DNA of 64,000 bases from Pseudomonadota bacterium (GCA_009924135.1 RFSE01000004.1:12893-76892); one strand, 5' to 3'. Counted from the stretch's first letter, positions 13,163-63,404 are shown. The notes: a model not told the origin generated them from the sequence alone. Made by a program: numbers and translations.

Positions 13163-13762
13163 CTACTTCTTCGACGGGTTCGAGACGTTCTTCGACGGGT
13201 TCGAGACGTTCTTCGACGGGTTCGAGACGTTCTTCGACGGGTTCGAGACGTTGAGATTATTCAGATTGCCCGCCACCGGATTACCGAAATCACCTGCGGT
13301 GAGTGTAGGCACAAACGGCAGCAACACAGTGATAATGTTACTCTTCTGAGCAGAGGCACCCTCACTACCGCCCGCCGCAATCGCCTTTACGAGTTCAACC
13401 TTCATGCCCGGGTTGCCCGACGCAACACCATTAGCAGCCGCCAAGCAGATGGCAACGGACGAGTTGGGCAGCAGGGCGCAAGCCTGACGCACGGCTTCCT
13501 GCAGCTCTTCGCGGCCAACGCCCGGCTTGGAGCCGAGGTAGGCCACGATCTTCTTGGCCATGTCTTCCTTGTCAGCGGCAGGTGTGTTTTTCAGAATGTC
13601 CGCCACCTTCTGGCCGATTTTCTTGCCCTTGACGCCATCCAGCTCATTCTTGTGAGTGGTGGTCAGGTTAGCCTCGGCTGAAGCGTCGTAGGTGAAGCAC
13701 ACACCCGTGAGCAGGAGGGTTCCGAGGGCGAGGGACTTGATGATGTTGGCGGCAGTTTTCAT
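13163..13762 (-). CDS. Secreted protein of unknown function with C-terminal (NVSNPSK)x4 repeat
   Basis: ATG at 13762 gives the signal peptide MKTAANIIKSLALGTLLLTGVCF...A/EA. The ORF-track start at 13786 is TTG. The C-terminus is built from 4 perfect 21-bp repeats. Confidence 0.7.
   Translation of the reverse strand: MKTAANIIKSLALGTLLLTGVCFTYDASAEANLTTTHKNELDGVKGKKIGQKVADILKNTPAADKEDMAKKIVAYLGSKPGVGREELQEAVRQACALLPNSSVAICLAAANGVASGNPGMKVELVKAIAAGGSEGASAQKSNIITVLLPFVPTLTAGDFGNPVAGNLNNLNVSNPSKNVSNPSKNVSNPSKNVSNPSKK
13169..13252 (-). repeat. Perfect 21-bp tandem repeat x4 (coding VNTR)
   Basis: CTTCGACGGGTTCGAGACGTT is repeated four times without a mismatch at 13169-13189, 13190-13210, 13211-13231 and 13232-13252. 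Confidence 0.95.
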
Positions 13763-13846
13763 GTTCGTTTTTGAAAGTTTTTCCAAACTCTTTGCGACAC
13801 TAGGCGAAATGGCGGATTTGTGACAACACTTTTTTCATTTTCTTGA

Positions 13847-25802: not shown

Positions 25803-26127
25803 CCTAAGCCGGAACCATTCTTTAGCCACAGATGGAACACAGATGAAACACAGACAGGGACGCTCCTCTGTTGGGTTCTACGCGGGATGGACCGTTCACC
25901 CAAAGAGGCATCCAGTTGGGAAGCCTAGCAGCCTGTTCAAAAACTGTAGCGGCGCTCTGTGAGCGCCGAACGAAACGAGAGAACAGGCCCAAACTCGGCG
26001 GTCATAGACCGCCGCTACAGCGGGCAGGGCGTTTTTTTTAACGGACTGTTAGCTGGTGACCAAAGCTGCGGCCATCTGTGTTCAATCTGTGTTTCATCTG
26101 TGGCTCAAATGCATCGGTCCGGCTAAG
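25803..26127. mobile_element. Composite/nested MITE-like element (family A termini around a second palindromic element)
   Basis: Termini are TAAGCCGGAACCATTCTTTAGCCACAGATGGAACACAGATGAAACACAGA and the reverse complement of CCATCTGTGTTCAATCTGTGTTTCATCTGTGGCTCAAATGCATCGGTCCGGCTAAG. Flanked by direct TAAG. The inner inverted repeat is CTGTAGCGGCG...CGCCGCTACAG. Confidence 0.7.
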
Positions 26128-26154
26128 ATCGCCTCCGAACTGGCCAACCTTAGC

Positions 26155-41341: not shown

Positions 41342-42712
41342 TCACGATGAAGCGTGCGATTTCAGCAGATAGGCACGGAAGGCTTCATAGTCCGCACCCA
41401 TGTGGTCGTAATCCTCCGGCTGATGCAAACCGGTGTTCATGGCAGCGGGGACGTCCGGAGCCCAGCCGACGACCTTCTCCACTTCCTCGGGGAACTTGGC
41501 GGGGTTCGCCGTCTCGATAATGACGGCGGGCGTGGAGCCGATGGACTCGGCGGCGCACCAGTCGAGGAAGCCCTGCCACGCCACGACCCCATGCGGCTCG
41601 AGCAGGATTTGATACTTGTTCCAAAAGTCCCGCAGCGACGTGCGCGTACGCTCATCGGTGATGGAGGTGGAGAAGACATCGCGGCGCATCGCCACGAGGT
41701 CGGGCGGCCGGTGAATCTTGCCGGTCTCGTCCATCTGGCCACCGTAAACGGCCACGAGGCGGGCGAGGTTGCTGGGATGGCCCACATTCATCGCGTTGGA
41801 GACGGAGTTGCGCGAGGGGGAGATCTTTTCGTAAACGCCGCTGTGGAGGTAGCGCGGGAAGGAGTCGTTGTCGTTGACCGAGGCGATGATTTTCCGCACG
41901 GGCAGGCCCATCTCGCGCGCGACCACGGCGCCCATCATGTCGCCGAAGTTGCCGCTGGGAATGGAGAAGACGATGGGTTCACCGGGCCGTGCGAGGCGCG
42001 AGGCGGCGTAGAAGTAGTAAACGCTCTGCGGCAGGAGCCGGCCGATGTTGATGGAGTTGGCGGAGGACAGGTGGATGTGCGCCAGCGCAGGGTCGGTGAA
42101 CGCACGTTTGACCATCGCCTGGCAGTCGTCGAACTTGCCGTCCACGGCCACGGTGCGGACGTTCTCCTTGAGCGTGGTCATGAGCTTGCGCTGGCTCTCG
42201 CTGACCTCGGCGAGCGGGAAGAGGACGATGACCCGCACCCCGGGAATCTCATGGAAGGCATGTGCGACGGCCGCGCCGGTATCACCGCTGGTGGCCGTGA
42301 GGATGGTGACCTCGCGATGTTCCTCCTTCAGGAACCGGCCAAACATCTGCGCCATCATCTGGGCCGCGAAATCCTTGAAAGACGCCGTGGGGCCCTGATC
42401 CAGGCGCATCAGGTAGATGCCGCGCTGAATGACCTCCAGCGGGACGCCAAAGTCATACGCCTTGCGGCACATCTCGGCGAGGGCGTCGTCGGGAATGATG
42501 CCCTCGGTGAATTTGCGGAGCACGCGGAAGGCGACTTCGCGATACGGCAGCTCGGCGAACTCGGCGATTTCCAACGACGTGAGCTGCGGGAAGCGCTCGG
42601 GCAGATACAGGCCGCGATCCGGGGCCTGCCCGGCGAGGAAGGCTTCCCGGAGGTTGACGGCGGGGGACTGGCCGTTGGTGCTGCGAAACAAAAGCGCGCT
42701 CATCTTACTCAA
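41342..42712 (-). CDS. thrC: Threonine synthase
   Basis: 456 aa. Contains the PLP-lysine motif TASFKDFAAQ and the N-terminus ...GLYLPERFP, typical of the long ThrC form. Confidence 0.9.
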   Translation of the reverse strand: MSKMSALLFRSTNGQSPAVNLREAFLAGQAPDRGLYLPERFPQLTSLEIAEFAELPYREVAFRVLRKFTEGIIPDDALAEMCRKAYDFGVPLEVIQRGIYLMRLDQGPTASFKDFAAQMMAQMFGRFLKEEHREVTILTATSGDTGAAVAHAFHEIPGVRVIVLFPLAEVSESQRKLMTTLKENVRTVAVDGKFDDCQAMVKRAFTDPALAHIHLSSANSINIGRLLPQSVYYFYAASRLARPGEPIVFSIPSGNFGDMMGAVVAREMGLPVRKIIASVNDNDSFPRYLHSGVYEKISPSRNSVSNAMNVGHPSNLARLVAVYGGQMDETGKIHRPPDLVAMRRDVFSTSITDERTRTSLRDFWNKYQILLEPHGVVAWQGFLDWCAAESIGSTPAVIIETANPAKFPEEVEKVVGWAPDVPAAMNTGLHQPEDYDHMGADYEAFRAYLLKSHASS

Positions 42713-44072
42713 AGCTTTCTACCCGGATCATGACGGGGGCTGATTTTACAACCGGCAGTTTGGCAATCGCCGACAGCGCGCGTTTCATCGCGGCGTTCGG
42801 TGCGTCGTGGATCATCAGGATGACCGGGACGGTTTCCCCGGCATGGCCCTCCGGCTGGATGATGGAAGAGATGCCGATCTTCGCCTTCGCCAGAATGTCC
42901 GCGATCTTCGCGAACACTCCGGGCCGGTCCTCGACGGTCAGCCGCACGTAATAGCGGGAGACCACGTCATCCATGGGCAGGACCGCGCCGTCGCGCTCGT
43001 GCGGGATGAACGGCGGGATGCGGTTTTTGGTGCCGCACTTGAGGTCCAGCGCGGCATCTGCGAGATCGCTCAAGACCGCGCTGGCCGTGGCGTCCTGGCC
43101 CGCGCCGCGCCCGTAGTAAAGCGTGTCGCCCACGACATCGCCGCGCACATAGACGGCGTTGAAGACGCCGTTGACGTTGGCGAGGACGTGGGAGTTGGGG
43201 ACGAGTGCGGGATAGACGCTGACTTGAATTGCGAATTGCGAATTGCGAATTGCGAATTTGGTACCGCGCGCCGGCCGCCCATTCCCCATTCGCAACTCGC
43301 CATTCGACATTGTCTTTACGCAACCCAGCAAACGGATCGTATAGCCCAGCTTCGCGGCAAACTCGATGTCCTGCTTCGTGATGTTGCGGATGCCCTCGGT
43401 GTAAATCTGCTTCGGGTTCACCCAGAAACCGTGCGCGAGGCTGGCGAGAATGCCGGTCTTGTGCGCCGCGTCGTGGCCGTCGATGTCCAAGTCCGGCGGC
43501 GTTTCCGCGTAGCCCAGACGCTGGGCGTCGGCGAGCACGGCGTCGAAGTCCGCGCCCTCATCCTTCATGCGCGAGAGGATGTAGTTGCATGTGCCGTTGA
43601 CGATGCCGAAGAGCCGGGTGATGCGGTTGCCGATCAAGCCTTCGCGCAGCACCTTGATGATCGGGATGCCGCCCGCCACGCTCGCCTCGTAATACAGGTT
43701 CGTCCCGTGCTGCTGGGCTGCGGCGAACAGTTCTTCGCCGTGCGCGGAGAGCAAGGCCTTGTTCGCGGTGACGACGGGCTTGCCGAGTTTGAGCGCCGCG
43801 AGCACGACCTGCCGGGCGGTGGTGGTGCCACCCATCAACTCGACGACTAGGTTCACCTCGGGGTCCGCAACGACGCTCTGCCAGTCCGTGGTGAGCAGCC
43901 CGGCCGGGATGTTCACCGCGCGGGCTTTCTTCAAATCGCGCACGGCGACGCGCGCGATGGTCAACGACACGCCAAGACGCGACGCCATCAAAGCGCCGTT
44001 TCGCCGGATGGCTTCGTAAACGCCGCCACCGACGGTGCCGCCACCAATCATGCCCAGATTCACCTGCCGCAT
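42705..44072 (-). CDS. hom: Homoserine dehydrogenase (with an about 25-30-aa repeat-derived insertion) plus ACT domain
   Basis: GMIGGGTVGGGV, NAVYVRGDVVGDTLYYGRGAGQDATASAVLSDL, and a C-terminal ACT domain. There is an 8-nt overlap with thrC. Confidence 0.9.
   Translation of the reverse strand: MRQVNLGMIGGGTVGGGVYEAIRRNGALMASRLGVSLTIARVAVRDLKKARAVNIPAGLLTTDWQSVVADPEVNLVVELMGGTTTARQVVLAALKLGKPVVTANKALLSAHGEELFAAAQQHGTNLYYEASVAGGIPIIKVLREGLIGNRITRLFGIVNGTCNYILSRMKDEGADFDAVLADAQRLGYAETPPDLDIDGHDAAHKTGILASLAHGFWVNPKQIYTEGIRNITKQDIEFAAKLGYTIRLLGCVKTMSNGELRMGNGRPARGTKFAIRNSQFAIQVSVYPALVPNSHVLANVNGVFNAVYVRGDVVGDTLYYGRGAGQDATASAVLSDLADAALDLKCGTKNRIPPFIPHERDGAVLPMDDVVSRYYVRLTVEDRPGVFAKIADILAKAKIGISSIIQPEGHAGETVPVILMIHDAPNAAMKRALSAIAKLPVVKSAPVMIRVESFE
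43224..43312. repeat. Intragenic tandem-heptamer hairpin element (GAATTGC x4 / spacer / degenerate complement)
   Basis: Four perfect GAATTGC units at 43226-43253, a 20-nt GC spacer, then ATTCCCC ATTCGCA ACTCGCC ATTCGAC at 43281-43308. Confidence 0.85.
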
Positions 44073-44179
44073 AGGGCGCGGAGACTATGCGATGGCGGCG
44101 GCCAGACAATTCCTTTTTGACCTTTGGGATTCCTCATTTCGCTGCTGACGAGGCCGCCGCCCTGGGTTTCACTGCCCGC

Positions 44180-45334
44180 ATGAAGCCTCGCCTTACCCGC
44201 CGCAACGTCATGAAAGGCACCGTCGCCTTTGCCGCCTACGCCTTCTCGCAGGTGCCCATGTCCGTCTTTGGCTTCGCCGAGTTGGAAGAAGGGGCGACGC
44301 TGGTGCCGTTTCTCTCGCCGCAGTTGCGCAATCCCAACCGCCCCATGATCCAGTGGGACGAACTGACCAACTGGGTCACGCCCAACGAACAGGTTTACGT
44401 CGTCAGCCATTACAACAAGCCCGAACTCAAGGCCGACGAGTGGAAGCTGGAAATTGGCGGCATGGTCGAGCGGCCGGTGACCCTCACGCTCGCCGAGCTG
44501 AAGCAGCGGTCCAAGCAGGAGATCATGGCCACACTCGAATGCGGTGGGAACGGGGCCAGCGCGTCGTTCATGGGGGCGGTGGCCAACGTCCGCTGGACTG
44601 GCACGCCCCTGGCGCCGCTGCTCCGTGAGCGCGGCCTGCTCAAACGCGGCACGGAAGTCCTCTTCTTCGGCGCGGATGAAAAATCCGAAAAGGTGCGCGA
44701 GCAGGACTTTGACATGCGCTTCTCCCGCAGCCTTTCCCTCCCGGACGCGCTTCAGGACAAGGTGCTGCTGTGCTGGGAAATGAACGGCCTGCCGCTACCC
44801 CGCGAGCACGGCTTCCCGCTGCGCCTCGTCGTGCCCGGCTGGTACGGCATCGCCTGGGTGAAATGGCTCACGCGCATCGAAGTGCTCGACCGCCGGCTCA
44901 TGAGCAAATACATGGCCCGCGAATACGTGACCATTCGCGGCGAGACGCAAAACGGCAAAACCCTCTGGCGGGAAACCTCCGTGAGCTGGATGAATGTTAA
45001 GAGCGTCGTGGCCCGCGTGGCGAAGCTGAAGAACGGCACCCTCCGCGTCAGCGGTGCGGCCTGGAGTGATGGCACCCCGATCAAGTCGGTGGAACTCAAG
45101 CTGGACGACGGCGCATGGCAGTCCGTGAAGCTCGATACGGCCAACCGCGCGGAATACTCGTGGACGTTCTGGTCCTTCGACCTGCCGGAAGTCCCCGCCG
45201 GTGAACACACCCTCGTGTCCCGCGCCACCGATGCCGACGGCCGCGTGCAACCCGCCGCCGACGACCCCACGATCAAGCTCAAGAAGACTTACTGGGAAGC
45301 CAACCAGCAGTGGACGCGCAAGATCAAGGTTTAG
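44180..45334 (+). CDS. Molybdopterin-dependent oxidoreductase (sulfite-oxidase family, with dimerisation domain)
   Basis: ATG at 44180 gives the Tat-like MKPRLTRRNVMKGTVAFAAYAF. LECGGNGASASF, FPLRLVVPGWYG and a C-terminal Ig-like dimerisation domain are present. Confidence 0.8.
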   Translation: MKPRLTRRNVMKGTVAFAAYAFSQVPMSVFGFAELEEGATLVPFLSPQLRNPNRPMIQWDELTNWVTPNEQVYVVSHYNKPELKADEWKLEIGGMVERPVTLTLAELKQRSKQEIMATLECGGNGASASFMGAVANVRWTGTPLAPLLRERGLLKRGTEVLFFGADEKSEKVREQDFDMRFSRSLSLPDALQDKVLLCWEMNGLPLPREHGFPLRLVVPGWYGIAWVKWLTRIEVLDRRLMSKYMAREYVTIRGETQNGKTLWRETSVSWMNVKSVVARVAKLKNGTLRVSGAAWSDGTPIKSVELKLDDGAWQSVKLDTANRAEYSWTFWSFDLPEVPAGEHTLVSRATDADGRVQPAADDPTIKLKKTYWEANQQWTRKIKV

Positions 45335-45387
45335 ACTTTTGAGGCGGCCGGAAACGGGTGCGCTGCCGGGTTGCAAATTCGCGAAAA

Positions 45388-45415
45388 TTGACACACATTC
45401 TTGTGCGGGTATATT
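45388..45415 (+). promoter_or_regulatory. Candidate sigma-70-type promoter of the ars operon
   Basis: TTGACA (45388-45393), a 16-nt spacer, then TATATT (45410-45415), 12 nt upstream of the arsR ATG. Confidence 0.4.
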
Positions 45416-45427
45416 CCCGCAACGGGT

Positions 45428-45835
45428 ATGAAGCCGCCGCACCTCATCGAAGTTTACAACTGTCTCTGCGACGAGACCCGGCTGCGCATCGTCCACCTGC
45501 TCGCGCAGTCGCCGCTCTGTGTCTGCCACCTTCAGGACATCCTGGGACTGACGCAGGTGGGGGCTTCGAAGCACCTCGCCTATCTGCGCCAGCGCGGGCT
45601 CGTGCAATCGCAGCGGCATGAACAGTGGATGATCTACTCGCTGCCCGCCGAACGGCCCCGCGAACTGGACTGGCAGTTGCGCTGCCTGCAGGACTGCCTG
45701 CCCACGCACCCGGTGTTCCGTGATGACCTCCGCGAGCTGAAGACCCGGCAGGCGGACTGCTGCTGGGTGGCCGACGTGGCCGTCACGCCGGCCCGATCCC
45801 GCCCCCTTTCCAAAACCAAACGCACTGTCAAATGA
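45428..45835 (+). CDS. arsR: ArsR/SmtB-family metalloregulator
   Basis: ATG at 45428 gives ...[45 protein letters not shown], containing the CVC metal site and a wHTH. Confidence 0.85.
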
Positions 45836-46296
45836 CAACCAAACCCTCCGTACTGATTCTTTGCACCGGCAACTCCTGCCGCAGCCATCTCGCTGAAGGC
45901 ATCCTGCGCTCCGTCGCGGGCGACATCCTCGAGGTTCACAGCGCCGGCTCGAAGCCCGCCGGCTACGTGCATCCGCTCGGCATCCAGGTCATGCACGAGA
46001 TCGGCATCGACATCTCGGCGCACTGCTCCAAGCACATGAACGACTTCCTCCAGCAGGACATCGAGACCGTCATCACCGTCTGCGGCAACGCCGATCAGGC
46101 GTGCCCGCTGTTTCCTGGGCAACTGAACCGGCACCACTGGGGTTTCGACGACCCGGCGCACGCCACGGGCAGCGAGGCGGAAAAGCTCGCGGTGTTCCGG
46201 CGCGTGCGGGACGAAATCCGCCGGGTGTTCACCGCGTACGCCGAGGGTCGCCGTGACCAGCTCAAGGCGGCGAAATCGGGTGGCCAAGCATCTTAG
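45832..46296 (+). CDS. arsC: Arsenate reductase, LMW-PTP (thioredoxin-coupled) type
   Basis: P-loop [14 protein letters not shown]. There is a 4-nt overlap with arsR. The stop TAG (46294-46296) lies in the MITE target duplication. Confidence 0.85.
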
Positions 46297-46492
46297 CCGG
46301 ACCGATTCATTAGCCACGGATGAAACACGGACGGAACACGGATGGGAACGCGATGAACACGCGTTTTGTCGCAGTTGCCTGCCTGGACCAAATGGTGCGG
46401 GTCAAAAAAGCGGGGCAAGGCGGTCCTTGCACAGTTGGTTCTGTGTTTAATCCGTGTTCCATCCGTGGCTCAACTGCATCGTCCCGGCTTAG
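46292..46492 (+). mobile_element. MITE, family A (about 200 bp), between arsC and arsD
   Basis: TIRs are GCCGGACCGATTCATTAGCCACGGATGAAACACGGA and the reverse complement of TCCGTGTTCCATCCGTGGCTCAACTGCATCGTCCCGGC. Flanked by direct TTA(G). The core shares CACGCGTTTTGTCGCAGTTGCCTG and GGTGCGGGTCAA with the inverted copy at 63053-63249. It has no coding capacity. Confidence 0.8.
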
Positions 46493-46622
46493 TCAAACTG
46501 TTATGGGTGGTTCACCCCATTCCCGTCTGCGCCCGCGGAGGCCAGCTTTGGCCAAGGCCGGGTGGGCGAACCGCAACCAGACAACCTAGTTTCAACTCAC
46601 CGATCCAACCGGCGACCCCCCC

Positions 46623-46955
46623 ATGAAAACCATCCAAGTTTACGACCCGCCGATGTGCTGCTCGACCGGCCTCTGCGGCAACGAGATCGACCCCGCGCTG
46701 GTAAGCTTCGCCGCACTCCTCACGCAGTTGAGCCAACAGGGCGTGACCGTGGAACGGTACAACCTCGGCCAGCAGCCGATGGCGTTTATCCAAAACCCGG
46801 TGGTGAAGGCGTTGCTCGACGCGGAAGGCGTGGCAGTCCTGCCGCTCCTCTTCGTGGACGGTGAGGTCCGTCTGAAAGGCCGCTACCTGAACGAGGCGGA
46901 ACGTGAAACGCTTTCCCGCAGTGCGCGCGGTGCAAGCGTCGAGGTGCCCTCGTGA
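46623..46955 (+). CDS. arsD: Arsenic metallochaperone/repressor ArsD
   Basis: MKTIQVYDPPMCCSTGLCG... (Cys12-Cys13-Cys18 motif), 110 aa. Confidence 0.9.
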   Translation: MKTIQVYDPPMCCSTGLCGNEIDPALVSFAALLTQLSQQGVTVERYNLGQQPMAFIQNPVVKALLDAEGVAVLPLLFVDGEVRLKGRYLNEAERETLSRSARGASVEVPS

Positions 46956-48751
46956 ACCTGCCGCCCTACGAGCCCGATCCCGCGACCACCACGCGCTACC
47001 TGTTCTTCACCGGCAAGGGCGGCGTGGGCAAGACCTCGCTCTCATGTGCGACCGCGTTGAAGTTGGCCGAAGCGGGCCGGCGGGTGTTGCTGGTCAGCAC
47101 GGACCCGGCCTCGAATCTCGACGAGGTGCTGGAATTCCCGCTCACCAACCAACCCCAACCCATCCCCGGCGCCCCAGGTCTGCAAGCCTTGAACATCAAT
47201 CCCGTGGCCGCTGCGGAAGCGTATCGCGAGCGGGTCATCGGGCCGATGCGCGGCCTGCTGCCCGAGGCGGCCTTGCGCAGCATGGCCGAGCAGCTCTCCG
47301 GTTCCTGCACGGTGGAGATCGCAGCCTTCGATGAGTTTTCCGGCCTGATCGGCAATCCCGAAACCACCACGGCTTACGACCACGTCATCTTTGACACCGC
47401 GCCGACCGGTCACACGCTGCGGCTCATGAGCCTGGCCAAGGCGTGGGACCAGTTTCTCGACCAGAACACCAGCGGCACGTCCTGTCTCGGGCCGCTGGCC
47501 GGTCTGGCAAAGCAGCGCACGATCTACGAAGGCACGGTCACGACGCTGGCCGATGCGACGGCGACGACACTGGTGCTGGTGAGCCGTCCGCAGTTGGCCG
47601 CGCTGACGGAGGCGGAGCGGACCTCGGCGGAGTTGCGCGCCCTGGGCGTAGGCAACCAACAACTGGTCATCAACGGCATCTTTGCCACGAACTGTCCCGC
47701 CGATGTGACCGCACAGGCCATGCAACGTCGCGGTCTGGCGGCCCTGACGGCGGCGCAGGCATTCATCGGCCGGTTGCCGAGTTTTATCGTGCCGCTGAAA
47801 CCCATCAACATTCTCGGTCTCGGCGGTCTCCGCGTGCTGCTGCAACGGGACGGGGGGACAACCTGCGCCTCAACCCCGGTCAATGACTGGACGGCTCCGG
47901 CCATGGAGAGCCTCGAAACCCTCGTGGCTGACCTTGAACGCCAGGGCAGCGGGGTCGTCATGACGATGGGCAAAGGGGGCGTGGGCAAGACGACCGTGGC
48001 GGCGGCGATCGCGGTGATGCTGGCGCGGCGCGGCCATGCGGTGCATTTGAGCACGACTGATCCCGCCGCGCATGTGGCCAAGACCCTGGCGGGGCAGGTG
48101 GTCGGTCTGACGCTCAGCAAGATTGATCCCGCCCTCGAGACGGCTGCCTATCAGGCCGAAGTCATGGCAGCCCAGGGTGGTAAAATGGATGCCGCCGGCC
48201 GGGCGTTGCTGGCCGAAGATTTACGGTCCCCCTGCACGGAGGAGATCGCGGTGTTTCGCGCCTTTGCCCGCGAGGTGGGGCACGGAGCCAACCGGTTCGT
48301 CGTGCTCGACACCGCCCCCACTGGACACACGCTCCTGCTGCTGGATGCCAGCGAGGCGTACAACCGCGAGTTGCAGCGGCAGACGCGCAGCACGCAGCCC
48401 GAGTCGGTGATGCGCCTGTTGGAGCGGCTGCGCGACCCGGTCTTCACACGCATCCTGCTGGTGACCTTGCCGGAGGCGACGCCGGTGCATGAGGCGGCGG
48501 CGTTGCAGGAAGATTTGCGCCGCGCGCACATCGAGCCGTTCGCGTGGGTCATCAACCAAAGCCTGCTCCACAGCGGTTCGTGCGATCCGCTCCTGCAATG
48601 TCGCGAGGAATCGGAACATCGCTACCTGCGGGAAGTGGTGCAGAAGCACGCCACCCGGACGGCCTGGCTGCCGTGGCAACCGGAAGAACCCACCGGCCCG
48701 GATGCCCTGGCCCGCCTGGCTGCCACGGGACTTAAAACAACAAGCAGATGA
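46952..48751 (+). CDS. arsA: Arsenite-stimulated ATPase ArsA (two homologous halves)
   Basis: GKGGVGKTS appears twice (N- and C-terminal halves) and DTAPTGHTL appears twice. There is a 4-nt overlap with arsD. Confidence 0.9.
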   Translation: MNLPPYEPDPATTTRYLFFTGKGGVGKTSLSCATALKLAEAGRRVLLVSTDPASNLDEVLEFPLTNQPQPIPGAPGLQALNINPVAAAEAYRERVIGPMRGLLPEAALRSMAEQLSGSCTVEIAAFDEFSGLIGNPETTTAYDHVIFDTAPTGHTLRLMSLAKAWDQFLDQNTSGTSCLGPLAGLAKQRTIYEGTVTTLADATATTLVLVSRPQLAALTEAERTSAELRALGVGNQQLVINGIFATNCPADVTAQAMQRRGLAALTAAQAFIGRLPSFIVPLKPINILGLGGLRVLLQRDGGTTCASTPVNDWTAPAMESLETLVADLERQGSGVVMTMGKGGVGKTTVAAAIAVMLARRGHAVHLSTTDPAAHVAKTLAGQVVGLTLSKIDPALETAAYQAEVMAAQGGKMDAAGRALLAEDLRSPCTEEIAVFRAFAREVGHGANRFVVLDTAPTGHTLLLLDASEAYNRELQRQTRSTQPESVMRLLERLRDPVFTRILLVTLPEATPVHEAAALQEDLRRAHIEPFAWVINQSLLHSGSCDPLLQCREESEHRYLREVVQKHATRTAWLPWQPEEPTGPDALARLAATGLKTTSR

Positions 48752-48867
48752 ACCCCCGGTGTGAGAACTCGAAACGGCCCAGTTTGGTCGGCTGGGCCTA
48801 TACCTGCTATGCCATCAGTGTGGAGTAACCGCATGACTCCATCCTTATCGGGCCAAAGAATTCCATT

Positions 48868-49086
48868 ATGACCTATCTCTACGAAACCATCCCTCTCCGC
48901 ACGGGTGACAAGCCTCGGCACTACGAAATCCAGCAGGGCATGAATGACGCCCCGCTCACCCGCCATCCCACCACCGGCGAAGCAATCCGGCGGGTCATAC
49001 TCGGCGGCTGGGGCCTGGTCACGCCCAAGCCGGGCGGCCCCACCAACTCGGGGAACTGCGGCTGCGGACCGGGCGATTGTTGCTGA
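48868..49086 (+). CDS. Small FmdB-like protein lacking the zinc-ribbon cysteines, with Cys-rich tail
   Basis: 72 aa. MTYLYETIP...HYEIQQGMNDAPLTRHPTTGEAIRRVILGG follows the FmdB/CxxC_CxxC_SSSS layout but with both CxxC pairs replaced. It ends GNCGCGPGDCC. Confidence 0.5.
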   Translation: MTYLYETIPLRTGDKPRHYEIQQGMNDAPLTRHPTTGEAIRRVILGGWGLVTPKPGGPTNSGNCGCGPGDCC

Positions 49087-49138
49087 TGCCCATTCGTAGA
49101 GGCCAGGAGGCCGGCCAAATCCTCGCCGCCAGCCCGGC

Positions 49139-50611
49139 TCAAACAAACGCTTCGCGGATGGCCTTGCCCGTGCCGGCCACGCCGGTGAGGCGTTCGGGCC
49201 GGCCGTTGTGCTCGAAGAAGAGGTCGTCATTCGCGAGGCCCATCGCATGGAGAATGGTCGCGTGAAAATCTTTCACTGATTTCGGGTCCTGCTCCGCCCG
49301 GAGGCCGATGGCATCCGTCGCGCCGATGCTCTGGCCGCCCTTCACGCCACCCCCGGCGAGCCAACCGGTAAAACCGTAGGGGTTGTGGTTTCGTCCCGCG
49401 CCGCCCTGCAACATCGGCGTGCGTCCGAATTCACCCGCCCAGATCACCAGCGTGTCATCAAGCAGGCCTCGCTGCTTCAAATCCGTGAGCAGCGCGCCCG
49501 TGGCCTGGTCGGTCTGATGCGCGTTGCGCTCGGCGTAGTCCTTGTTGTTGTCGTGGCCGTCCCACCCGTATTTGTCCACGCCCTGATAGACCTGCACCAC
49601 GCGCACCCCGCGTTCGAGCAGACGCCGCGCGAGCAGGCACTGGCGACCGTATTGGGCCTTGATGCGTTTCGGATCGTTCACGCCGTAAAGCTCAAGCGTC
49701 GCCGGTGTCTCACCGGACAAGTCCCCGACGTCCAACGCCTCGGACTGCATCCGGTAGGCCAGTTCGTAGCTCGCGATGCGCCCGTCGAGATCCAGCAGTC
49801 CCGGCCGCGCGTCGCGGTGCGTCTTGTTGAAGGACTGGATCAAGTCCAGCGTGTCGCGCTGCGTGCCGGCGAGTTCGGCGGGCGGCTTCAAGTTGAAGAC
49901 CGGCTCGCCCTCGTGCCGGAACTTCGTCGCCTGGAACGCCGCCGGGAGAAACGCGTTCGACCAGTTGGCCGTGCCGCCGAAGCCGCCCACTTGGAACAGC
50001 ACCACGAAGCCCGGCAGATTCTGGTTCTCCGAGCCGAGGCCGTAGGTCAGCCACGAGCCGACGCTGGGCCGGTCGCCCAGGATGACGCCGGTGTTCATCT
50101 GGTAGGTCGCGGGGGCGTGGTTCGACGAATCGCAGTGCAGCGACTTGATGAAGCAGAGTTCGTCCACGTGTTTCGCCGTGTGCGGCATCAGCTCGCTCAC
50201 CCACGCGCCGCACCGGCCGTGCTGCGCCCATTTCCAAGGGCCGGCCAGCAGCTCGTTCTTCGACGAGTTGAACACCCCGCCGACTTTGTCCTTGATGTTC
50301 CTGATGCTGTCCGGCACGGGCTTGCCGTGGAGCTTGAGCAGGTCGGGCTTGTAGTCAAACAGGTCCATGCCCGGCGGTGCGCCGTACTGGAAGAGCCAGA
50401 TCACGCGCTTGGCCCGGGCCGCGAAATGCGGCTGGCGCGGCGCGAGCGGGTTCATCAGGTCAATGCGCCGGTTCTGATTAAAATTCTGTCCGCGCGCGGA
50501 ATCCGCGAGCAGCGCGGACAACGCGAGCGCGCCGGCACCGCCACCGCACCGGAGCATGAAGTCACGGCGGGAGTATGGCACCGTATTGGGGTCTGGTATG
50601 AACGGGCTCAT
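49139..50611 (-). CDS. DUF1501 (sulfatase-fold) protein with Tat signal
   Basis: 490 aa. SRRDFMLRCGGGAGALALSALL (twin-arginine) and WLAGGGVKGG are typical of DUF1501. Confidence 0.85.
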   Translation of the reverse strand: MSPFIPDPNTVPYSRRDFMLRCGGGAGALALSALLADSARGQNFNQNRRIDLMNPLAPRQPHFAARAKRVIWLFQYGAPPGMDLFDYKPDLLKLHGKPVPDSIRNIKDKVGGVFNSSKNELLAGPWKWAQHGRCGAWVSELMPHTAKHVDELCFIKSLHCDSSNHAPATYQMNTGVILGDRPSVGSWLTYGLGSENQNLPGFVVLFQVGGFGGTANWSNAFLPAAFQATKFRHEGEPVFNLKPPAELAGTQRDTLDLIQSFNKTHRDARPGLLDLDGRIASYELAYRMQSEALDVGDLSGETPATLELYGVNDPKRIKAQYGRQCLLARRLLERGVRVVQVYQGVDKYGWDGHDNNKDYAERNAHQTDQATGALLTDLKQRGLLDDTLVIWAGEFGRTPMLQGGAGRNHNPYGFTGWLAGGGVKGGQSIGATDAIGLRAEQDPKSVKDFHATILHAMGLANDDLFFEHNGRPERLTGVAGTGKAIREAFV

Positions 50612-51405
50612 GCAAGGCTATTCAAAACACCCTCCAGAGAATCGCGTAGAAACGCGAGGAAATTGGGGCTTTGCAGGCGTTTCGGCAGCATCGCAATTGC
50701 AGCCACAAGCAGGACAACCCCAAAGGTGAGATAATTGGCCCGGATGACGCTGGTCAAAAAGCTGGCATCTGGATGCTGTCGGCGAGCAAGCGCAGCAACC
50801 ACACGTTCTTCCCATACCGAAGTCAGACCGATGCCTATCGCCAGTCCAGTTACGATGTATCCAAATTTTAGAATCCAATAGAGGGCGAAGTGACGGGTTT
50901 CCAGTTGGTACGCGGAGACGGTAAAAAGAATCGTGCTTACCACTACCAAGGTGACCATGCCCCAGGCGACGTGATCCGGCTGCAGGCGGCTTGCCCATCG
51001 CCAGCGGCTGATTTGCACGACCCGTGCAGCTGGGATGCGGGAGAGAAAGTACACCAACGGAAATATCGCGAGGCCAAAGACCGGGATCGTAGGTGGAATT
51101 AAGAGCAGTATCCCTATGACCGTGGTGACAACATTACCAAGGCACAGATAGCCAATCGCCTCAAACCAGCGTAACCGCCGCTCGAGAAATGCAAACGCTA
51201 CGCTCTTAAACAAGACAGTTGCCCCGAGCGAAGCGATGGCAACAACCCCGGGTCCCGCGTATATGACGGCAAGTTGGACAACGGGGGTGCAAGCAGCCGC
51301 CGACATCGGCAGGCCGACGACTAGCACCGTCAAAAACAACAGCTTCACACCGAAGAGTAATCCCTTCGGAATTGTCGCTGGCTGTCTCTCAGTCCACATA
51401 CACAA
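50608..51405 (-). CDS. Polytopic membrane protein of unknown function (translationally coupled to DUF1501)
   Basis: About 6-7 hydrophobic helices. The stop overlaps the DUF1501 start (ATGA). The start is uncertain: TTG 51405, ATG 51399 or GTG 51348, the last giving MKLLFLTVLVVGL. Confidence 0.6.
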   Translation of the reverse strand: MCMWTERQPATIPKGLLFGVKLLFLTVLVVGLPMSAAACTPVVQLAVIYAGPGVVAIASLGATVLFKSVAFAFLERRLRWFEAIGYLCLGNVVTTVIGILLLIPPTIPVFGLAIFPLVYFLSRIPAARVVQISRWRWASRLQPDHVAWGMVTLVVVSTILFTVSAYQLETRHFALYWILKFGYIVTGLAIGIGLTSVWEERVVAALARRQHPDASFLTSVIRANYLTFGVVLLVAAIAMLPKRLQSPNFLAFLRDSLEGVLNSLA

Positions 51406-51448
51406 ACGCGTTTACGTTCACCGGCGCGCTACGAAATTTCAGCATGGC
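51389..51448 (-). pseudogene. Remnant of a DUF1553-protein C-terminus
   Basis: The minus frame reads AMLKFRSAPVNVNAFVYVD*, compared with the genuine C-terminus at 51899, ...LPEFCRALLNVNEFVYVD*. The DNA is alignable over about 57 nt. Confidence 0.5.
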
Positions 51449-51648
51449 CGGCGTTCCAGCTCTTCGATCAGTTTCTCGATCCGTTGCAAGGCGGCCTGTG
51501 ACGATTTGCTCCTTCGCTCCCAACGTTTGTCGCGCTCCGCCATCTCCTTCTGAATTACGGCAACGTGCCGGTCATATTCGCGCAGTGCCGTGAGGAAATC
51601 GGCCTCGGTAACTTCCCCCTTCGCAAGGGGTGGAGGTTTGGTCTGCAT
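51439..51648 (-). CDS. Small hypothetical coiled-coil protein
   Basis: 69-aa ORF MQTKPPPLAKGEVTEADFLTALREYDRHVAVIQKEMAERDKRWERRSKSSQAALQRIEKLIEELERRPC with non-shadow composition. No family assigned. Confidence 0.4.
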   Translation of the reverse strand: MQTKPPPLAKGEVTEADFLTALREYDRHVAVIQKEMAERDKRWERRSKSSQAALQRIEKLIEELERRPC

Positions 51649-51698
51649 AGTCTAGAAATTAGTCCTGGCGATGGAACTGGTCAATGCGCTGATTCAAT

Positions 51699-51894
51699 GG
51701 GCGCATCTTGACACTGCCCCCGGAGCGCGGCTGTGTCCCGCTCGGCGCGGGATCAGCCGCAGCAACGACAGAAGGCTGAGCGGGGGCGTAACGCCGCACC
51801 GCCTCCTGCCAGGCGCAGCCGCTGCGGCTGGTCTCCGCGACACAGCCGCGCTCCGGAAGTGTTCGTTCCTCGGGGGCAGTGGCAAGATGCGCCC
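51699..51894. mobile_element. MITE, family B (196 bp) with about 65-bp TIRs and a perfect 9-bp target-site duplication
   Basis: The left end is GGGCGCATCTTGACACTGCCCCCGGAGCGCGGCTGTGTC... The right end, reverse-complemented, is GGGCGCATCTTGCCACTGCCCCCGAGG..CCGGAGCGCGGCTGTGTC... Direct TGATTCAAT occurs at 51690-51698 and 51895-51903. Confidence 0.85.
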
Positions 51895-51898
51895 TGAT

Positions 51899-54800
51899 TC
51901 AATCCACATACACAAACTCGTTCACATTCAGCAGCGCGCGGCAGAACTCCGGCAGGGCGGTCGGGCCGTGCTTGGCGAGGAACGCGCCCGCCTGCTCACG
52001 CTCGGCAGCACTCGGGGCACGGCCGAGGGTGAGCCACACGGCGCGTTCGATTTGTTTGGCGGCATCGTTGCCCGCTTCGGTCGTGACCCGTGCGGCAAGG
52101 GCTTTGGCCGCGCGCAGGGAAAACTCACTGTTCAACAGGTTCAGTGCCTGCGGGGCGACGGTCGTCACGTCGCGCCGGGCGCAGGAGAACGAGGTGTCCG
52201 GCAGGTCGAAGGCTTGCAGGAACGGCAACGGCACGCAGCGCTTCTGGATGAGGTAGAGCGAACGCACGTCGCACTCCTCCTCCTTGTCCGCGTACCAGCC
52301 CTGGCGACGGCCGCTGTCCTTGCCTTCAAGCCCCTCCAGCACGCCAGGCTGGGCCCGCAAAATCTCCTCGGGCAATGGCGGCCACAACGGCTTGCCCCCG
52401 GCGTAGGGTCGCAGCTTGCCGGAAACGGCCAGCAGGGTGTCGCGCATCGTTTCCGCATCGAGACGGCGCGGGTTTTGCCGCCAGAGGAGGTGGTTGTCGG
52501 GGTCGAGGGTCGAGGGTCGAGGGTCGAGAGCGCGTGCGCTCGACGCCTTCCGGCCTTCGGCTCTCGACTCTCGACTCTCGGCCACACTCACCTGCCGATA
52601 CGCCGCGGTCGTGACCATCAGCCGGTGCATCGCCTTGATGGACCAGCCGCGCGCGACGAACTCCGTGGCCAGCCAGTCCAGCAGTTCGGGGTGCGTGGGC
52701 TTGGCCCCGGCGTAGCCGAGGTCGTTCGGATTCGCGAAGAGCGCCGCACCGAAATGGTGCTGCCAGAGGCGGTTCACGAGCACGCGGGCAGTGAACGGAT
52801 TCTGCGGCGTGGCGATCCATTCAGCCAGCGCGAGCCGGCGTCCGGTCGTGCCGGAAGGCGGGGCTTTCACCTTGGCGGGATTCGGGTCCAGCACGGAGAT
52901 GAAACCAGGCTGAACTTCGTCGCGCGGTTCGGTGAAGTCGCCTTGGTAGAAAAGCTTCGTCGGCTCCACGCCGCCCTCGCTCACGGCCATCGCGACGGTG
53001 TACGCGCGCTTCTGCTTCTTGAGTTCGTCCACCTTGGCAGTGGCTTCGGAGTGACGCTTCTTGCCGGCTTCGTCGAGGGCCGCGAGTGCGTCCTTGTCGC
53101 TGACCTTCAGCTTTTCCAACTGCGGTTCGAGTTTCTTCTTCGTGGCCTCGTCGCGCTTGGCCTCGTCGGTCTTGAGCAGCTCCTGAACGTCAGCGGGCAG
53201 CTTCGCGATGCGCTCGGCGCGCAGCTTCTGGCGACCGGGGGCGAGCGCCTCCTCCACGGCCTTTTGCGCGTCGATGACCCGCTTGTCCACGCCGGCATTG
53301 TGCGCCTTGATGGCTTCCTGTTCGGGCGCGAGATCAATGGGCTGGTCGTCGCGTGATTTCACGGCGGCGAAGAAGGCGCGGAAGCGGAAATGATCCGCCT
53401 GCGAGAGCGGGTCGTACTTGTGATCGTGGCAGTTGCAGCAGGAGAAGGTGAGGCCGAGGAACGCGCTGCCCGTCGTGTTGACGAGATCGGCCATCAGATC
53501 GTTCCGCAGCTTGCGATCCTCCTGGAAGATGCTCGCCGTGCTGTCGTACGTGCCGAGCCGCAGGAAACCGGTGGCGATGAGCGCGTCCGCCTCGGCCGGC
53601 GATTTCGGCGGACCACTCAACGACTCGTCCCCCGCCAACTGCTCGCGGATGAAACGGTCGTAGGGTTTGTCTTCGTTCAAGGAACGCACGACGTAATCGC
53701 GATAGCGCCACATCTCCGGGCGGAACTCATCGCGTTCGTGGCCGTTGGTGTCAGCGTAGCGCACCACATCGAGCCAGTGACGCGCCCAGCGTTCGCCGTA
53801 GCGCGGGGATGCCAGCAGCTTGTCCACGAGCTTTTCGATGGCCGGTTGCCGATTGGCGACGGAGGAACACTCACGCTCGAAGGCCGCGATCTCCTCGGGC
53901 GTCGGCGGCAGGCCGATGAGGTCGAAGTAAAGGCGGCGGATGAGCGTGCGCGGGTCGGCTTCGGGAGAATAAGTGAGGTTCTTCTCGGCGAGCTTCGCCA
54001 GGAGGAAGCGATCGATGGGGTTGGAAGTGTTCAGTTTCCAGTTTTCAGTTTTCAGTTGGGAAACGTTGCCGCCGCCCGCCTTTTTGGTTTCACCGCTGCC
54101 TTTGGCCGACTGAACACTGGACACTGAATACTGAACACTTTCCCCGGGCACACGCGGACGCACGGGTTGTTTGAGCGACCACAGGTCCAGGCGTTCGCCG
54201 CGCCAGATTTTGCGGATGGGATTTTCCGGGTCGGTCCAGGCGTCGCCGAGCGGTTTGGCGGGGGCGGCGATCTTCAGGGCAAGCTGGCCGTTGCCGGGGG
54301 CGTAGGCATCGAGACTTACCACATCCGGGCCTAGAATGACGCTGTCGAAGAGGGCTTCCTCGCCCTTGTCGCAAGTGGGTGCCAGGCCGGTGAGCGTGCA
54401 ATTACCAAGGTCCTTCCACAGATCCACCGTCACGACCGTCCAGGCCGTCGGCGCGGTGTCGCTCACGGAGATGGCGGCCCAGCCGGTGGTGTTCGGCCCC
54501 GCGACGTAACGACCCTTGGGGTCTTTCGCGTCCGGCCAGGCACCGCTGCGGGCCAGCTCGAACATCACGCTGCCACCGCCGCGCTTCTTCCACGCGAACC
54601 GCATGAAGCGCACCTGTCCCGCCGCCGGCTGCTCGCGCACTTCGAAGTTCCAGCCCGGCACCTTCGGCGCTTCGCGTTGAAGCGGCGTCATGCCCAACGC
54701 GGCCTTGCCGCGAAACACGTCATCGGTCACCAGCCGCGCCCGACCATTGCCGCTGGTCAGCACACTGAGAAATTCCACCTCATCTTCGAAGAGCACCGCC

Positions 54801-55162
54801 ACCGGCTCCGGCCACGGTGCGCCGGCCTGTACCCACGCTTCGAGCGCGGCGATGTCCTTGGCGGGCAGTTTTTCCTTCGGCGGCATCGCGAGGTCTTTCG
54901 TCGCGTGGCGGACGGCCTGGAGCAGGAGGCTCTTCTTCACGTCACCGGGGACAAACGCCGGGCCTTGCTCACCGCCCTTGAGCGCAGCGGCCTTGGAATC
55001 CAGCCGCAGACCACCCTTCTGCTTGTCCGGGCCGTGACAGGAAACGCATTTTTGATCGAGGAGCGGCTTGATCTGGTCGCGGAAATTCCCCACCTCGGCG
55101 CGTGCGGCACGGCACAGCAGAAGTGCGCCGAGGCAGAGCAAAAAAGTTCGCAGCCGGATCAT
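51899..55162 (-). CDS. PSCyt1 / DUF1549 (PSCyt2) / DUF1553 (PSD1) multidomain protein
   Basis: 1087 aa. Contains the heme-like motif CVSCHGPDKQKGGLRLD, NPIDRFLLAKL...LIRRLYFDLIGLPPTPEEI (DUF1549), and FLGLTFSCCNCHDHKYDP (DUF1553). Confidence 0.9.
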   Translation of the reverse strand: MIRLRTFLLCLGALLLCRAARAEVGNFRDQIKPLLDQKCVSCHGPDKQKGGLRLDSKAAALKGGEQGPAFVPGDVKKSLLLQAVRHATKDLAMPPKEKLPAKDIAALEAWVQAGAPWPEPVAVLFEDEVEFLSVLTSGNGRARLVTDDVFRGKAALGMTPLQREAPKVPGWNFEVREQPAAGQVRFMRFAWKKRGGGSVMFELARSGAWPDAKDPKGRYVAGPNTTGWAAISVSDTAPTAWTVVTVDLWKDLGNCTLTGLAPTCDKGEEALFDSVILGPDVVSLDAYAPGNGQLALKIAAPAKPLGDAWTDPENPIRKIWRGERLDLWSLKQPVRPRVPGESVQYSVSSVQSAKGSGETKKAGGGNVSQLKTENWKLNTSNPIDRFLLAKLAEKNLTYSPEADPRTLIRRLYFDLIGLPPTPEEIAAFERECSSVANRQPAIEKLVDKLLASPRYGERWARHWLDVVRYADTNGHERDEFRPEMWRYRDYVVRSLNEDKPYDRFIREQLAGDESLSGPPKSPAEADALIATGFLRLGTYDSTASIFQEDRKLRNDLMADLVNTTGSAFLGLTFSCCNCHDHKYDPLSQADHFRFRAFFAAVKSRDDQPIDLAPEQEAIKAHNAGVDKRVIDAQKAVEEALAPGRQKLRAERIAKLPADVQELLKTDEAKRDEATKKKLEPQLEKLKVSDKDALAALDEAGKKRHSEATAKVDELKKQKRAYTVAMAVSEGGVEPTKLFYQGDFTEPRDEVQPGFISVLDPNPAKVKAPPSGTTGRRLALAEWIATPQNPFTARVLVNRLWQHHFGAALFANPNDLGYAGAKPTHPELLDWLATEFVARGWSIKAMHRLMVTTAAYRQVSVAESRESRAEGRKASSARALDPRPSTLDPDNHLLWRQNPRRLDAETMRDTLLAVSGKLRPYAGGKPLWPPLPEEILRAQPGVLEGLEGKDSGRRQGWYADKEEECDVRSLYLIQKRCVPLPFLQAFDLPDTSFSCARRDVTTVAPQALNLLNSEFSLRAAKALAARVTTEAGNDAAKQIERAVWLTLGRAPSAAEREQAGAFLAKHGPTALPEFCRALLNVNEFVYVD
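52496..52581. repeat. Intragenic tandem-heptamer hairpin element (GTCGAGG units / CTCTCGA units)
   Basis: GTCGGGG GTCGAGG x3 GTCGAGA (52496-52530), a 30-nt spacer, then CTCTCGA CTCTCGA CTCTCGG (52561-52581). Confidence 0.8.
54028..54138. repeat. Intragenic tandem-heptamer hairpin element (TTCAGTT units / ACTGAAC units)
   Basis: TTCAGTT TCCAGTT TTCAGTT TTCAGTT (54030-54057), a 51-nt spacer, then ACTGAAC ACTGGAC ACTGAAT ACTGAAC (54109-54136). Confidence 0.8.
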
Positions 55163-55259
55163 GGTGGCATGAGAAAGACGCCGGTCGGGGCCGGTCGCTT
55201 CAGTCAGTCAATCACCGCTTGCCAGTCCACGCGCGTGACCTATGCTCGGCCAGTCTCAC

Positions 55260-55619
55260 ATGAAAACCCTCGCCGTCTGTCTGGCTGTCTTGGTTTGTCT
55301 CCCGGGCTGCAAGCGTCGTACGCCCGCCCCGGTCGCCGTGCCCGCTCCCGCGCCGACGCCACCGACGAACGCCCCGGCGAGCATCCCGCCGCCGCCCCAG
55401 CCGGGCACCGCCAAGATCATCACCGGGGATCAAAACTTGCCCAAGCTCAACGCGGCGCTCCAAGCCTATCTGGCCAAGTACAAAAAAGCTCCTGCCCGTC
55501 TGGATGAACTGGCCAAGGAAGGCTTGATCCCGTTCATCCCCATGGCTCCGCCGGGCCAGCGCTACGAACTCGACGCGGCCCGTGGTGAAGTAAAGCTGGT
55601 CAATCCCATGGTCAAATAA
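55260..55619 (+). CDS. Small lipoprotein of unknown function
   Basis: ATG at 55260 gives MKTLAVCLAVLVCLPGC (lipobox), a Pro/Ala-rich linker, then ...LIPFIPMAPPGQRYELDAARGEVKLV. Confidence 0.6.
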   Translation: MKTLAVCLAVLVCLPGCKRRTPAPVAVPAPAPTPPTNAPASIPPPPQPGTAKIITGDQNLPKLNAALQAYLAKYKKAPARLDELAKEGLIPFIPMAPPGQRYELDAARGEVKLVNPMVK

Positions 55620-63249: not shown

Positions 63250-63404
63250 GCAACCTGCGCTCAACGGGGCACGCTGCTACCAAGCCCTGACCGTGACTCT
63301 TATGGCTTATTTCATCGGCGGCCGCTCTCAGGGAGCGGGACTCGATGACGGGAGGCCTGTTCGCTCGCCATCAATTGGAGACTCGTCACCTCGTCTCCTA
63401 CGAG

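Follow-up and report, generated by a model that had tools for sequence, protein, structure and literature searches.

How does an array of seven-nucleotide units, followed by an array of its own reverse complement, come to lie in frame inside the gene for an essential enzyme? The question is raised by the homoserine dehydrogenase gene, hom, in a window of 64,000 nucleotides, which is the whole stretch of bacterial DNA analysed here. The initial annotation of this window read the block as a structured DNA or RNA element that had colonised the gene.

The host is a freshwater bacterium assigned to Limisphaerales, Verrucomicrobiota, and the relatives of its Hom protein come from freshwater and soil MAGs of the Verrucomicrobiota, order Limisphaerales / Pedosphaera. 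The hom gene shares an operon with thrC. The parts of the gene that matter here are the following.

42705–44072, minus strand: hom, encoding homoserine dehydrogenase (455 aa) with NAD-binding, Homoserine_dh and ACT domains
43226–43258, read on the plus strand: arm 1, (GAATTGC)x4.7 (TRF: period 7, 4.7 copies, 100% matches)
43261–43280: spacer GTACCGCGCGCCGGCCGCCC, 20 nt, GC-rich, which forms the hairpin loop and is translated G-R-P-A-R-G-T
43281–43312, read on the plus strand: arm 2, a degenerate complementary array, with ATTCCCC ATTCGCA ACTCGCC ATTCGAC at 43281–43308

The hairpin in hom and its counterparts in the window

Arm 1 opens with four error-free copies of GAATTGC (43226–43253, plus strand) followed by GAATTTG, the degenerate fifth unit of the initial annotation; both the sequence and TRF place them there. 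The GC-rich spacer and the degenerate reverse-complement array behind it are likewise borne out. Compared without gaps, arm 1 matches the reverse complement of arm 2 at 22 of 26 positions, a score that 1000 shuffles never gave, and arms paired with those of the window's other elements did no better than noise.

On the mRNA (minus) strand, arm 1 becomes the 3' arm (AATTCGC)n, translated KFAIRNSQFAI, and arm 2 becomes the 5' arm TCGAATG GCGAGTT GCGAATG GGGAATG, translated MSNGELRMGN. As had been claimed, the block lies inside the minus-strand hom reading frame and preserves it. It is translated KTMSNGELRMGNGRPARGTKFAIRNSQFAIQ, and one predicted tryptic peptide across the insert is NSQFAIQVSVYPALVPNSHVLANVNGVFNAVYVR. 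The claim that the pattern originated at the nucleotide level is upheld by the translation of the 7-nt period in all three frames. The proposed folding of the region gave a long imperfect stem for the mRNA strand (-42.5 kcal/mol, z = -4.2, with none of 200 shuffles equally stable) and a weaker fold for single-stranded DNA (-19.1 kcal/mol, z = -2.1).

In the protein, the element sits between the strands at residues 244–253 and 283–292. An AlphaFold2 model built from 24 close homologues was poor (mean pLDDT 57.7) and gave only the strand-coil-strand topology around the insert. At this position only a short turn of 5–10 residues is found in the solved Hom structures (3mtj, 6dzs) and in the shortest orthologues, so that the block is indeed extra sequence in a beta-hairpin loop, as first supposed. 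The spacer takes the place of native turn codons (GVRRK in orthologues). The last unit of arm 1 overlaps the conserved A-I-Q codons on the right side (AIQ = GCAATTCAA), and arm 2 is seeded on the native A-N-G-E codons on the left (ANG = GCGAATGGC).

An assembly artefact, or chance, was considered and rejected, since the same type of insert is present in the independent assemblies L001, L002, L201, L202 and P0002–P0013. A Hom protein identical to that of the window is also found in NCBI and ENA. A phmmer search with the 31-aa insert peptide against 1.84 billion representatives returned six matches, all of them short ORFs of long FAIRNSQ/YAIRNTQ arrays, and is therefore uninformative on in-frame copies.

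The initial annotation expected a class of elements with the same architecture and with arm sequences that differ between copies. Two more members occur in the window, both in frame in one gene.

51899–55162, minus strand: gene for a 1087-aa PSCyt1/PSCyt2/PSD1 protein (PSD1/DUF1553 gene), host of the next two features
52494–52584: second heptamer hairpin, PSD1 "site 2"; (GTCGAGG)x4.9, 28-nt spacer, (TCGACTC)x3.4; in frame, translated ESRESRAEGRKASSARALDPRPSTLDP
54020–54145: third heptamer hairpin, PSD1 "site 1"; (AGTTTTC)x4.6, 51-nt spacer, (ACTGAAC)x4.4; in frame, translated SVQYSVSSVQ...KTENWKLNT

TRF reports four arrays beyond hom, at 52496, 52557, 54026 and 54109, and the arms of the second and third hairpins are complementary at 20/23 and 29/35 positions. 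All three hairpins of the window are located in ORFs. In the third, one unit has TGG where a perfect repeat would give an in-frame TGA, and therefore selection has acted on the translated product.

The scan against shuffled controls that the annotation had proposed was run on the window. It holds five period-7 arrays, whereas dinucleotide shuffles give an expected 0.27. Two strict inverted pairs, together with the hom pair and its degenerate second arm, stand against 0.0 expected. Many further members of the class are found in related and metagenomic DNA. The window also contains a separate, genuine MITE-like family with 11-nt subrepeats.

Turnover at orthologous sites and recurrence at unrelated ones

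The Hom loop was measured between LLGxVK and IQVSVYP in 80 Limisphaerales orthologous loci. Its length ranges from 15 to 90 nt (5–30 aa). At least 22 of the 80 loci have TRF-detectable period-7 arrays at exactly this loop, and many lineages have an array on a single arm. At least 10 different units occur, among them AATTCGC, CATTCGC, AATCGGC, AAATCGC, AAATCCG/GATTGCC, ATTGACG, GTCGAGG, GTCCAAG, AAAGCAG and CCGGCCG. The proposed check, whether orthologues lack the block, thus finds only 5–10 residues in the shortest of them, and arrays of these many types in the same loop across the order.

Comparison of close relatives shows how the arrays change. Loci L014 and L013 have one and four copies of ATCGGCA, a difference of 21 nt, and are otherwise identical; the 438-aa and 445-aa forms of Hom differ by exactly the corresponding 7 aa. 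In other loops, (AAAGCAG)n extends native K-A-E codons and (GTCGAGG)n extends native V-E-G. The Hom proteins of the window and L002 are 92% identical, and their arrays show one and the same A/C difference in each of the four units, a case of concerted evolution. The left arm of L009 has undergone homogenisation, with ATGTCGA turned into GGGTCGA.

Hom length does not vary inside any of six 90%-identity clusters: 455 aa in 9+4 members, 457 in 4, 444 in 5/6 and 438 in 6/6 full-length members. The odd members of 441–442 aa and the truncated partials do not correspond to array steps of ±7 aa. It follows from this constancy that the repeat is not phase-variable.

A second example of turnover is the PSD1 gene. 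Hypervariability among its orthologues (72–83% identity) coincides exactly with the two element sites, where planctomycete orthologues have a linker of about 9 aa. Site 1 is occupied either by a hairpin of the GTTCAGT type, 105 nt long, or by one (AATCGGC)4 array, and variants differing by 7-aa steps occur. At site 2, four arm families occur in six syntenic relatives. The hairpin is kept in all six, with z from -0.85 to -4.3 (five at or below -2.6, and L202 at -0.85), and the spacer peptide is homologous in L201, L202 and L205 (VTDR/VTGR/AADR). The arms at this site therefore diverge in place and yet stay complementary, which may reflect template switching from arm to arm. A (CCTCGAC)n array in PSD1 terminates in native L-D-P.

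Such arrays are spread well beyond these two genes. Period 7 is the commonest in 597 kb comprising the window and 80 related loci, with 34 arrays against 16 of period 6 and 6 of period 9. A metagenome scan with (GAATTGC)x3 found at least 120 loci, on contigs of 34–70% GC. Among the matches listed, these loci have 258 period-7 arrays against 17 of period 6 and 9 of period 9, the units fall into 105 families that include classical cyanobacterial STRR (short tandemly repeated repetitive sequence) units, and 34 of 76 adjacent array pairs are inverted complements, while 3 are direct. Some metagenomic loci, L131 among them, have the classical STRR unit TTGGTCA in an inverted pair.

Many metagenomic (GAATTGC)n arrays lie in frame within single Pfam domain matches, such as ArgJ, HATPase_c (histidine kinase), CN_hydrolase (Lnt) and GlyS, where they are translated FAIRNSQ or ELRIANC. 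In one HemN-type radical-SAM ORF the array is just upstream of the domain. The same hairpin architecture also turns up across many taxa, both in unrelated genes and in non-coding DNA.

The units themselves recur. The families AATTCGC, AATCGGC, GGTCGAG and GTTCAGT appear at unrelated sites: SIGNRQSAI (AATCGGC) is common to the Hom loop and PSD1 site 1, ELRM..FAIRNSQ to Hom and PSD1 site 2 of P0127 and P0132, and GGTCGAG to the Hom loops of L009, L057 and L061 and PSD1 site 2 of the window. Avoidance of stop codons was rejected as the cause of this recurrence. Among heptamer necklaces (unit classes counted up to rotation), 50% are free of stops in six frames, and among random heptamers at 62% GC the share is 67%.

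Longer, imperfect stretches are shared as well. The 20-mer CATTCGCAACTCGCCATTCG occurs exactly in hom of the window, in PSD1 site 2 of L201, where it belongs to the other arm and is read in another frame, and in a bioA-like ORF of an unrelated contig (L165). An exact 24-mer with two variant units is common to PSD1 sites 1 and 2. These matches suggest copying between loci. By a rough estimate, the probability of a chance match is about 0.1 or less for the 24-mer, and is not negligible for the 20-mer, given the many arm pairs compared.

The arms also have a preferred orientation. Counting short-spacer pairs of every family, 25 have the G/T-rich arm on the 5' side and 5 have it on the 3' side. 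In the AATTCGC family, all 16 pairs with spacers of 11–48 nt, and one with a spacer of 126 nt, are arranged 5'-(GCGAATT)n..(AATTCGC)n-3' (17 to 0); seven pairs of opposite polarity have gaps of 63–203 nt. Both polarities have the same hairpin thermodynamics, and coding gives no preference. Spacer lengths show a narrow mode at 19–23 nt, and the units are 29–57% GC in a genome of 62% GC.

Little else is constant between copies. No consensus is conserved beyond the heptamer unit, and the array ends are fuzzy, merging into host codons. At 29 GAATTGC-type hairpins, no target-site duplication was recognisable by eye, and among the copies of this type that were compared no conserved terminal motif was seen beyond the repeat. 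Spacers of copies in different genes are unrelated (median local score 5; 8–10 for hom against the PSD1 and bioA copies, where the 95th percentile is 8). Homology of spacers between genes seemed convincing by eye but is only marginal against the distribution of all pairs, and for this reason no paralogy of whole elements is claimed.

Explanations for the origin of the hairpins

The explanation judged best, and with moderate likelihood, is that the hom block is an inverted pair of heptanucleotide microsatellites, of the STRR or long simple sequence repeat type, that grew in place around the codons of a beta-hairpin turn. The process starts from native heptamer seeds on either side of the turn (GCGAATG-GCGA for A-N-G-E; TCGGCAA or TTCGCAA-TTC for S/F-A-I-Q), which expand through replication slippage, as the comparison of orthologues shows. 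Only changes that keep the frame survive, typically three units gained or lost (21 nt or 7 aa), and the array is translated through all three frames as a peptide with a 7-aa period (FAIRNSQ or ELRM.N). Unit variants then sweep the arrays by concerted evolution, as seen for AATCGGC, AATTCGC and CATTCGC on one arm and for ATGTCGA to GGGTCGA on the other.

In a third step, intrastrand template switching from one arm of the quasi-palindrome to the other may preserve or create their complementarity, perhaps helped now and then by ectopic templating from similar arrays at other loci. Lastly, selection would act as a filter only, requiring that there be no stop codon, a length divisible by three and a solvent-exposed loop tolerant of length. 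Translation of the insert would add about 23 residues to Hom as a basic loop of low complexity, and the mRNA hairpin would be a by-product. The hairpin element probably does nothing for Hom.

Several findings are counted for growth in place: the variation of the Hom loop, the step between L014 and L013, the continuity with native codons, the unit-wide change between the window and L002, the excess of period 7, the inverted pairs, the turnover at PSD1 site 2, the unconserved spacers between genes and the constant Hom length in 90% clusters. Others are counted against it. Unit families recur at unrelated sites, which stop avoidance does not explain; an exact 20-mer and an exact 24-mer are shared between loci; the units are low in GC for their genome; and the polarity of the arms is predicted neither by slippage nor by arm-to-arm templating. 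Expansion that keeps the frame also requires jumps of three units or compensated intermediates. On the whole, the weight of evidence favours heptanucleotide growth and concerted turnover at permissive loops over the arrival of a discrete element or a selected structure.

An alternative that is possible, if rather unlikely, takes the block for a very small, non-autonomous mobile element akin to a MITE, REPIN or RPE, with the heptamer arrays as terminal inverted repeats, and holds that hom was colonised. It would be copied between sites by a trans-acting factor, or by directional addition of repeats, and would survive in frame only in permissive loops. Terminal inverted repeats are present (the 22/26, 20/23 and 29/35 arm matches), and the low unit GC, the spacer mode and the metagenomic loci, many of them in frame inside Pfam domains, all fit such an element. 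So do the presence of one family in different genes and, among close relatives, of different families at a single site. What keeps mobility in contention is that imperfect unit orders are common to hom, PSD1 site 2 and the bioA-like gene, and to the two PSD1 sites, and that the arm polarity is consistent. Any mobile or directional mechanism is kept in consideration, as a minority view, mainly on account of the polarity.

Against mobility, no target-site duplication or conserved terminal motif was recognised in the copies compared, and the spacers are unrelated between copies that share only the unit orders of their arms. The outer units run on into native codons, single-arm arrays and stepwise growth by 21 nt are found at the same sites, and at PSD1 site 2 the arms diverge in place around a conserved spacer. 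The colonisation of an essential gene, as first proposed, is therefore at most weakly supported. Shared unit orders and polarity speak for it, but growth from one unit to four, the variety of unit types in a single loop, the unconserved spacers and the run of outer units into native codons do not.

A broader version of this reading is more doubtful. The heptamer hairpins might be previously unrecognised, phylogenetically widespread minimal selfish elements that are made or copied directionally and spread between genes across phyla. G/T-rich repeats might be added to both 3' ends of a break before joining, or a transposase might read the repeat. If true, this would account for the shared imperfect arms, the few recurrent families, the spacer mode and the polarity.

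It is highly improbable that the hairpin is a selected cis-acting structure of the hom mRNA or DNA, for instance a processing site, a translational pause or a stability element. The folds of the window (z = -4.1 in the comparison of orthologues), L001 (-5.2) and L002 (-6.3) are strong, and at PSD1 site 2 the arms are still complementary after a change of family. Strong hairpins in hom, however, are confined to this subclade and a few other loci: the 80 orthologues average z = -0.23, with just 9 below -2. RNAalifold on nine copies gave 20 pairs with a covariation term of +0.5 and two-sided changes in 2/20 pairs, and so no supporting covariation. An Rfam search of 42000–56000 at a permissive E-value returned only sub-threshold, miRNA-like noise on the hairpins. 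A conserved structure specific to hom is unsupported on these grounds and because many lineages have a single arm, and the identical architecture in unrelated genes and non-coding DNA of many taxa argues the same way. Selection for the structure of the element that the initial annotation had proposed thus finds no support.

Least credible of all is that the insert is adaptive at the protein level, or a contingency repeat that switches hom on and off: a perfect repeat of 4.7 units with a length that is not a multiple of 3 is formally capable of frameshifting in an ORF, and the loop peptides are consistently basic, but the peptide is set by the DNA unit and differs wholly between lineages, Hom length is invariant in every 90% cluster examined, no frameshifted alleles were seen, and hom, which shares an operon with thrC, serves a housekeeping function.

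Comparison with known repeat systems

The nearest known system is the STRR of heterocyst-forming cyanobacteria, reportedly described by Mazel et al. in 1990; inverted STRR arrays are said to lengthen helix P12 of RNase P RNA (Vioque, 1997). Like the hom hairpin, STRR consist of tandem 7-nt units with several families per genome at dispersed loci, and their inverted pairs can form a long hairpin inside a functional gene without destroying its function. Unlike STRR, the copies described here belong to Limisphaerales (Verrucomicrobiota), lie in protein-coding sequence and are translated in frame. No description of turnover at orthologous sites or of arm polarity was found for STRR in the literature.

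In many bacteria heptanucleotides outnumber every other kind of long simple sequence repeat, and polymerase slippage has been put forward to explain them (PMC4679880 and PMC4692102, citing Mrazek 2007). Most such arrays are described as lying between genes, and ORFs are said to disfavour units whose length is not divisible by 3 (Mrazek, Guo and Shah 2007, as summarised in PMC4679880 and PMC4692102). Xanthomonas GGGAATC arrays are given there as an example, some of them forming inverted pairs, and arrays at one locus are said to vary in length and sequence between close relatives (PMC4679880, PMC4692102). The excess of period 7, the several unit families, the variation at a locus and the occasional inversion are all shared with the hairpins of the window. 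The difference is in location, since conserved protein domains contain all three window copies and many of the metagenomic ones.

Geobacter metallireducens has 49 copies of elements of four heptanucleotides, with the consensus GGACCGG, some inside genes (PMC2700814). They form one conserved unit family, found by BLAST and interpreted as regulatory RNA elements (PMC2700814). They resemble the hom arrays in having about four tandem heptamers and many copies; unlike the hom hairpin, no paired inverted arm is described for them.

The hom insert is also a palindromic in-frame insert in a conserved protein, as in the Rickettsia palindromic elements. RPEs are families with a conserved consensus of about 100–150 bp, which preserve the frame and add a surface peptide to essential genes. 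The palindromy at the nucleotide level, the preserved frame of an essential gene and the added peptide are common to both. In hom, by contrast, the arms are tandem heptamers continuous with host codons, the spacers are unrelated and the host is not Rickettsia. MITEs and REPINs likewise have two inverted arms, a short spacer, many copies and hairpin potential; the heptamer class differs from them in its single-arm arrays and in an internal sequence that is not shared by copies, and no conserved ends were recognised in it.

Quasi-palindrome template switching is a mechanism and not an element. It is reportedly known from short imperfect palindromes in E. coli, through the work of Ripley and of Lovett and co-workers, and it would explain the complementarity of the arms without selection on structure.

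Genes would be expected to lose any repeat with a unit length that three does not divide. In this case inverted 7-nt pairs persist in an essential enzyme and in conserved domains of numerous housekeeping proteins, where they give loop peptides with a period of seven residues and fast turnover between close relatives. If this is general, such pairs have been overlooked as a cause of variable loop length and of low-complexity inserts in bacterial proteins. They would also complicate annotation and alignment, and would offer a natural setting in which to study 7-nt polymerase slippage and how quasi-palindrome symmetry is kept up. Should the arm polarity hold genome-wide, it would indicate a mechanistic step that is absent from current slippage models.

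The initial annotation did not recognise the architecture as a described one. It is not undescribed, since tandem heptanucleotide arrays, with inverted pairs and copies inside genes among them, have been reported from cyanobacteria (STRR), Xanthomonas and Geobacter. Neither the exact arrays nor the peptides turned up in a literature search, and no description was found of paired in-frame heptamer hairpins in essential genes, or of any in Verrucomicrobia. The hom hairpin class is a variant of the known heptanucleotide STRR and long simple sequence repeats, rather than a wholly new kind of element. What is new is the host phylum, the paired in-frame occurrence in essential genes and conserved domains, the turnover of arm families with complementarity kept, and the polarity of the arms.

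Arm polarity of the heptamer hairpins

The heptamer hairpins are inverted pairs of 7-nt tandem arrays. Across all loci examined, 25 short-spacer pairs have a G/T-rich 5' arm and an A/C-rich 3' arm, and 5 have the opposite order. Where the gap exceeds 60 nt, the polarity is reversed (2 versus 8). Neither hairpin stability nor coding accounts for the polarity of the short-spacer pairs.

Further arrays are found in relatives:
L205, 11199-11225: (CAATCGG)x3.9, perfect, at a third site within the PSD1 gene
L018, 5716-5748 / 6109-6141: inverted pair (AGAATCC)/(ATTCTGG), perfectly complementary, 360 nt apart

The AGAATCC unit of the latter recurs in another relative, L039, directly after the homoserine dehydrogenase gene (hom).

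A separate MITE-like family and the hom neighbourhood

The window also carries three copies of a MITE-like element, a family that is distinct from the heptamer hairpins:
~25820-26135
~46293-46495
~63055-63255

Each copy has terminal inverted repeats of ~60 nt (TTAGCCGGACCGATTCA..GCCACGGATGAAACACGGA), within which lie 11-nt tandem subrepeats, CACGGATGAAA, and which enclose an internal region of 100-220 nt.

In three relatives (L201, L202, and L204), the gene order is PSD1, DUF1501, hom, thrC. Compared with this order, the DUF1501 region is separated from hom in the window by ~6 kb of additional DNA, and the MITE-like copy at ~46300 lies within it. The stop codon of hom overlaps the start of thrC (42705-42712).

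Other repeats in the window and in a metagenomic ORF

Two intergenic inverted repeats lie upstream of the PSD1 gene, and Rfam returned only sub-threshold miRNA-like matches for them (55829-55954 and 56046-56171):
55829-55860 / 55923-55954: 32-nt arms CCCCACCCCGGCCCTCTCCCGCTGGGAGAGGG, 97% complementary, 62-nt loop
56046-56171: 36-nt arms, 78%

Another tandem repeat is found in coding sequence:
13167-13252: 21-nt unit TTCTTCGACGGGTTCGAGACG, perfect, x4.1

It encodes four C-terminal copies of NVSNPSK in a 207-aa ORF (13163..13786, minus strand) whose N-terminus is signal-peptide-like. A metagenomic MurB-like ORF (L101) contains an in-frame ELRIANC heptamer array and, in mid-protein, a second, different repeat insert of 4-5 PLSGGEYKDNF-like copies.

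Mosaic heptamer blocks

At three of the compared loci, three or four different heptamer arrays lie end to end, 2-11 nt apart:
L114, 884-1052
L178, 10466-10558
L155, 14508-14616

These blocks of abutting arrays resemble the mosaic STRR regions of cyanobacteria.
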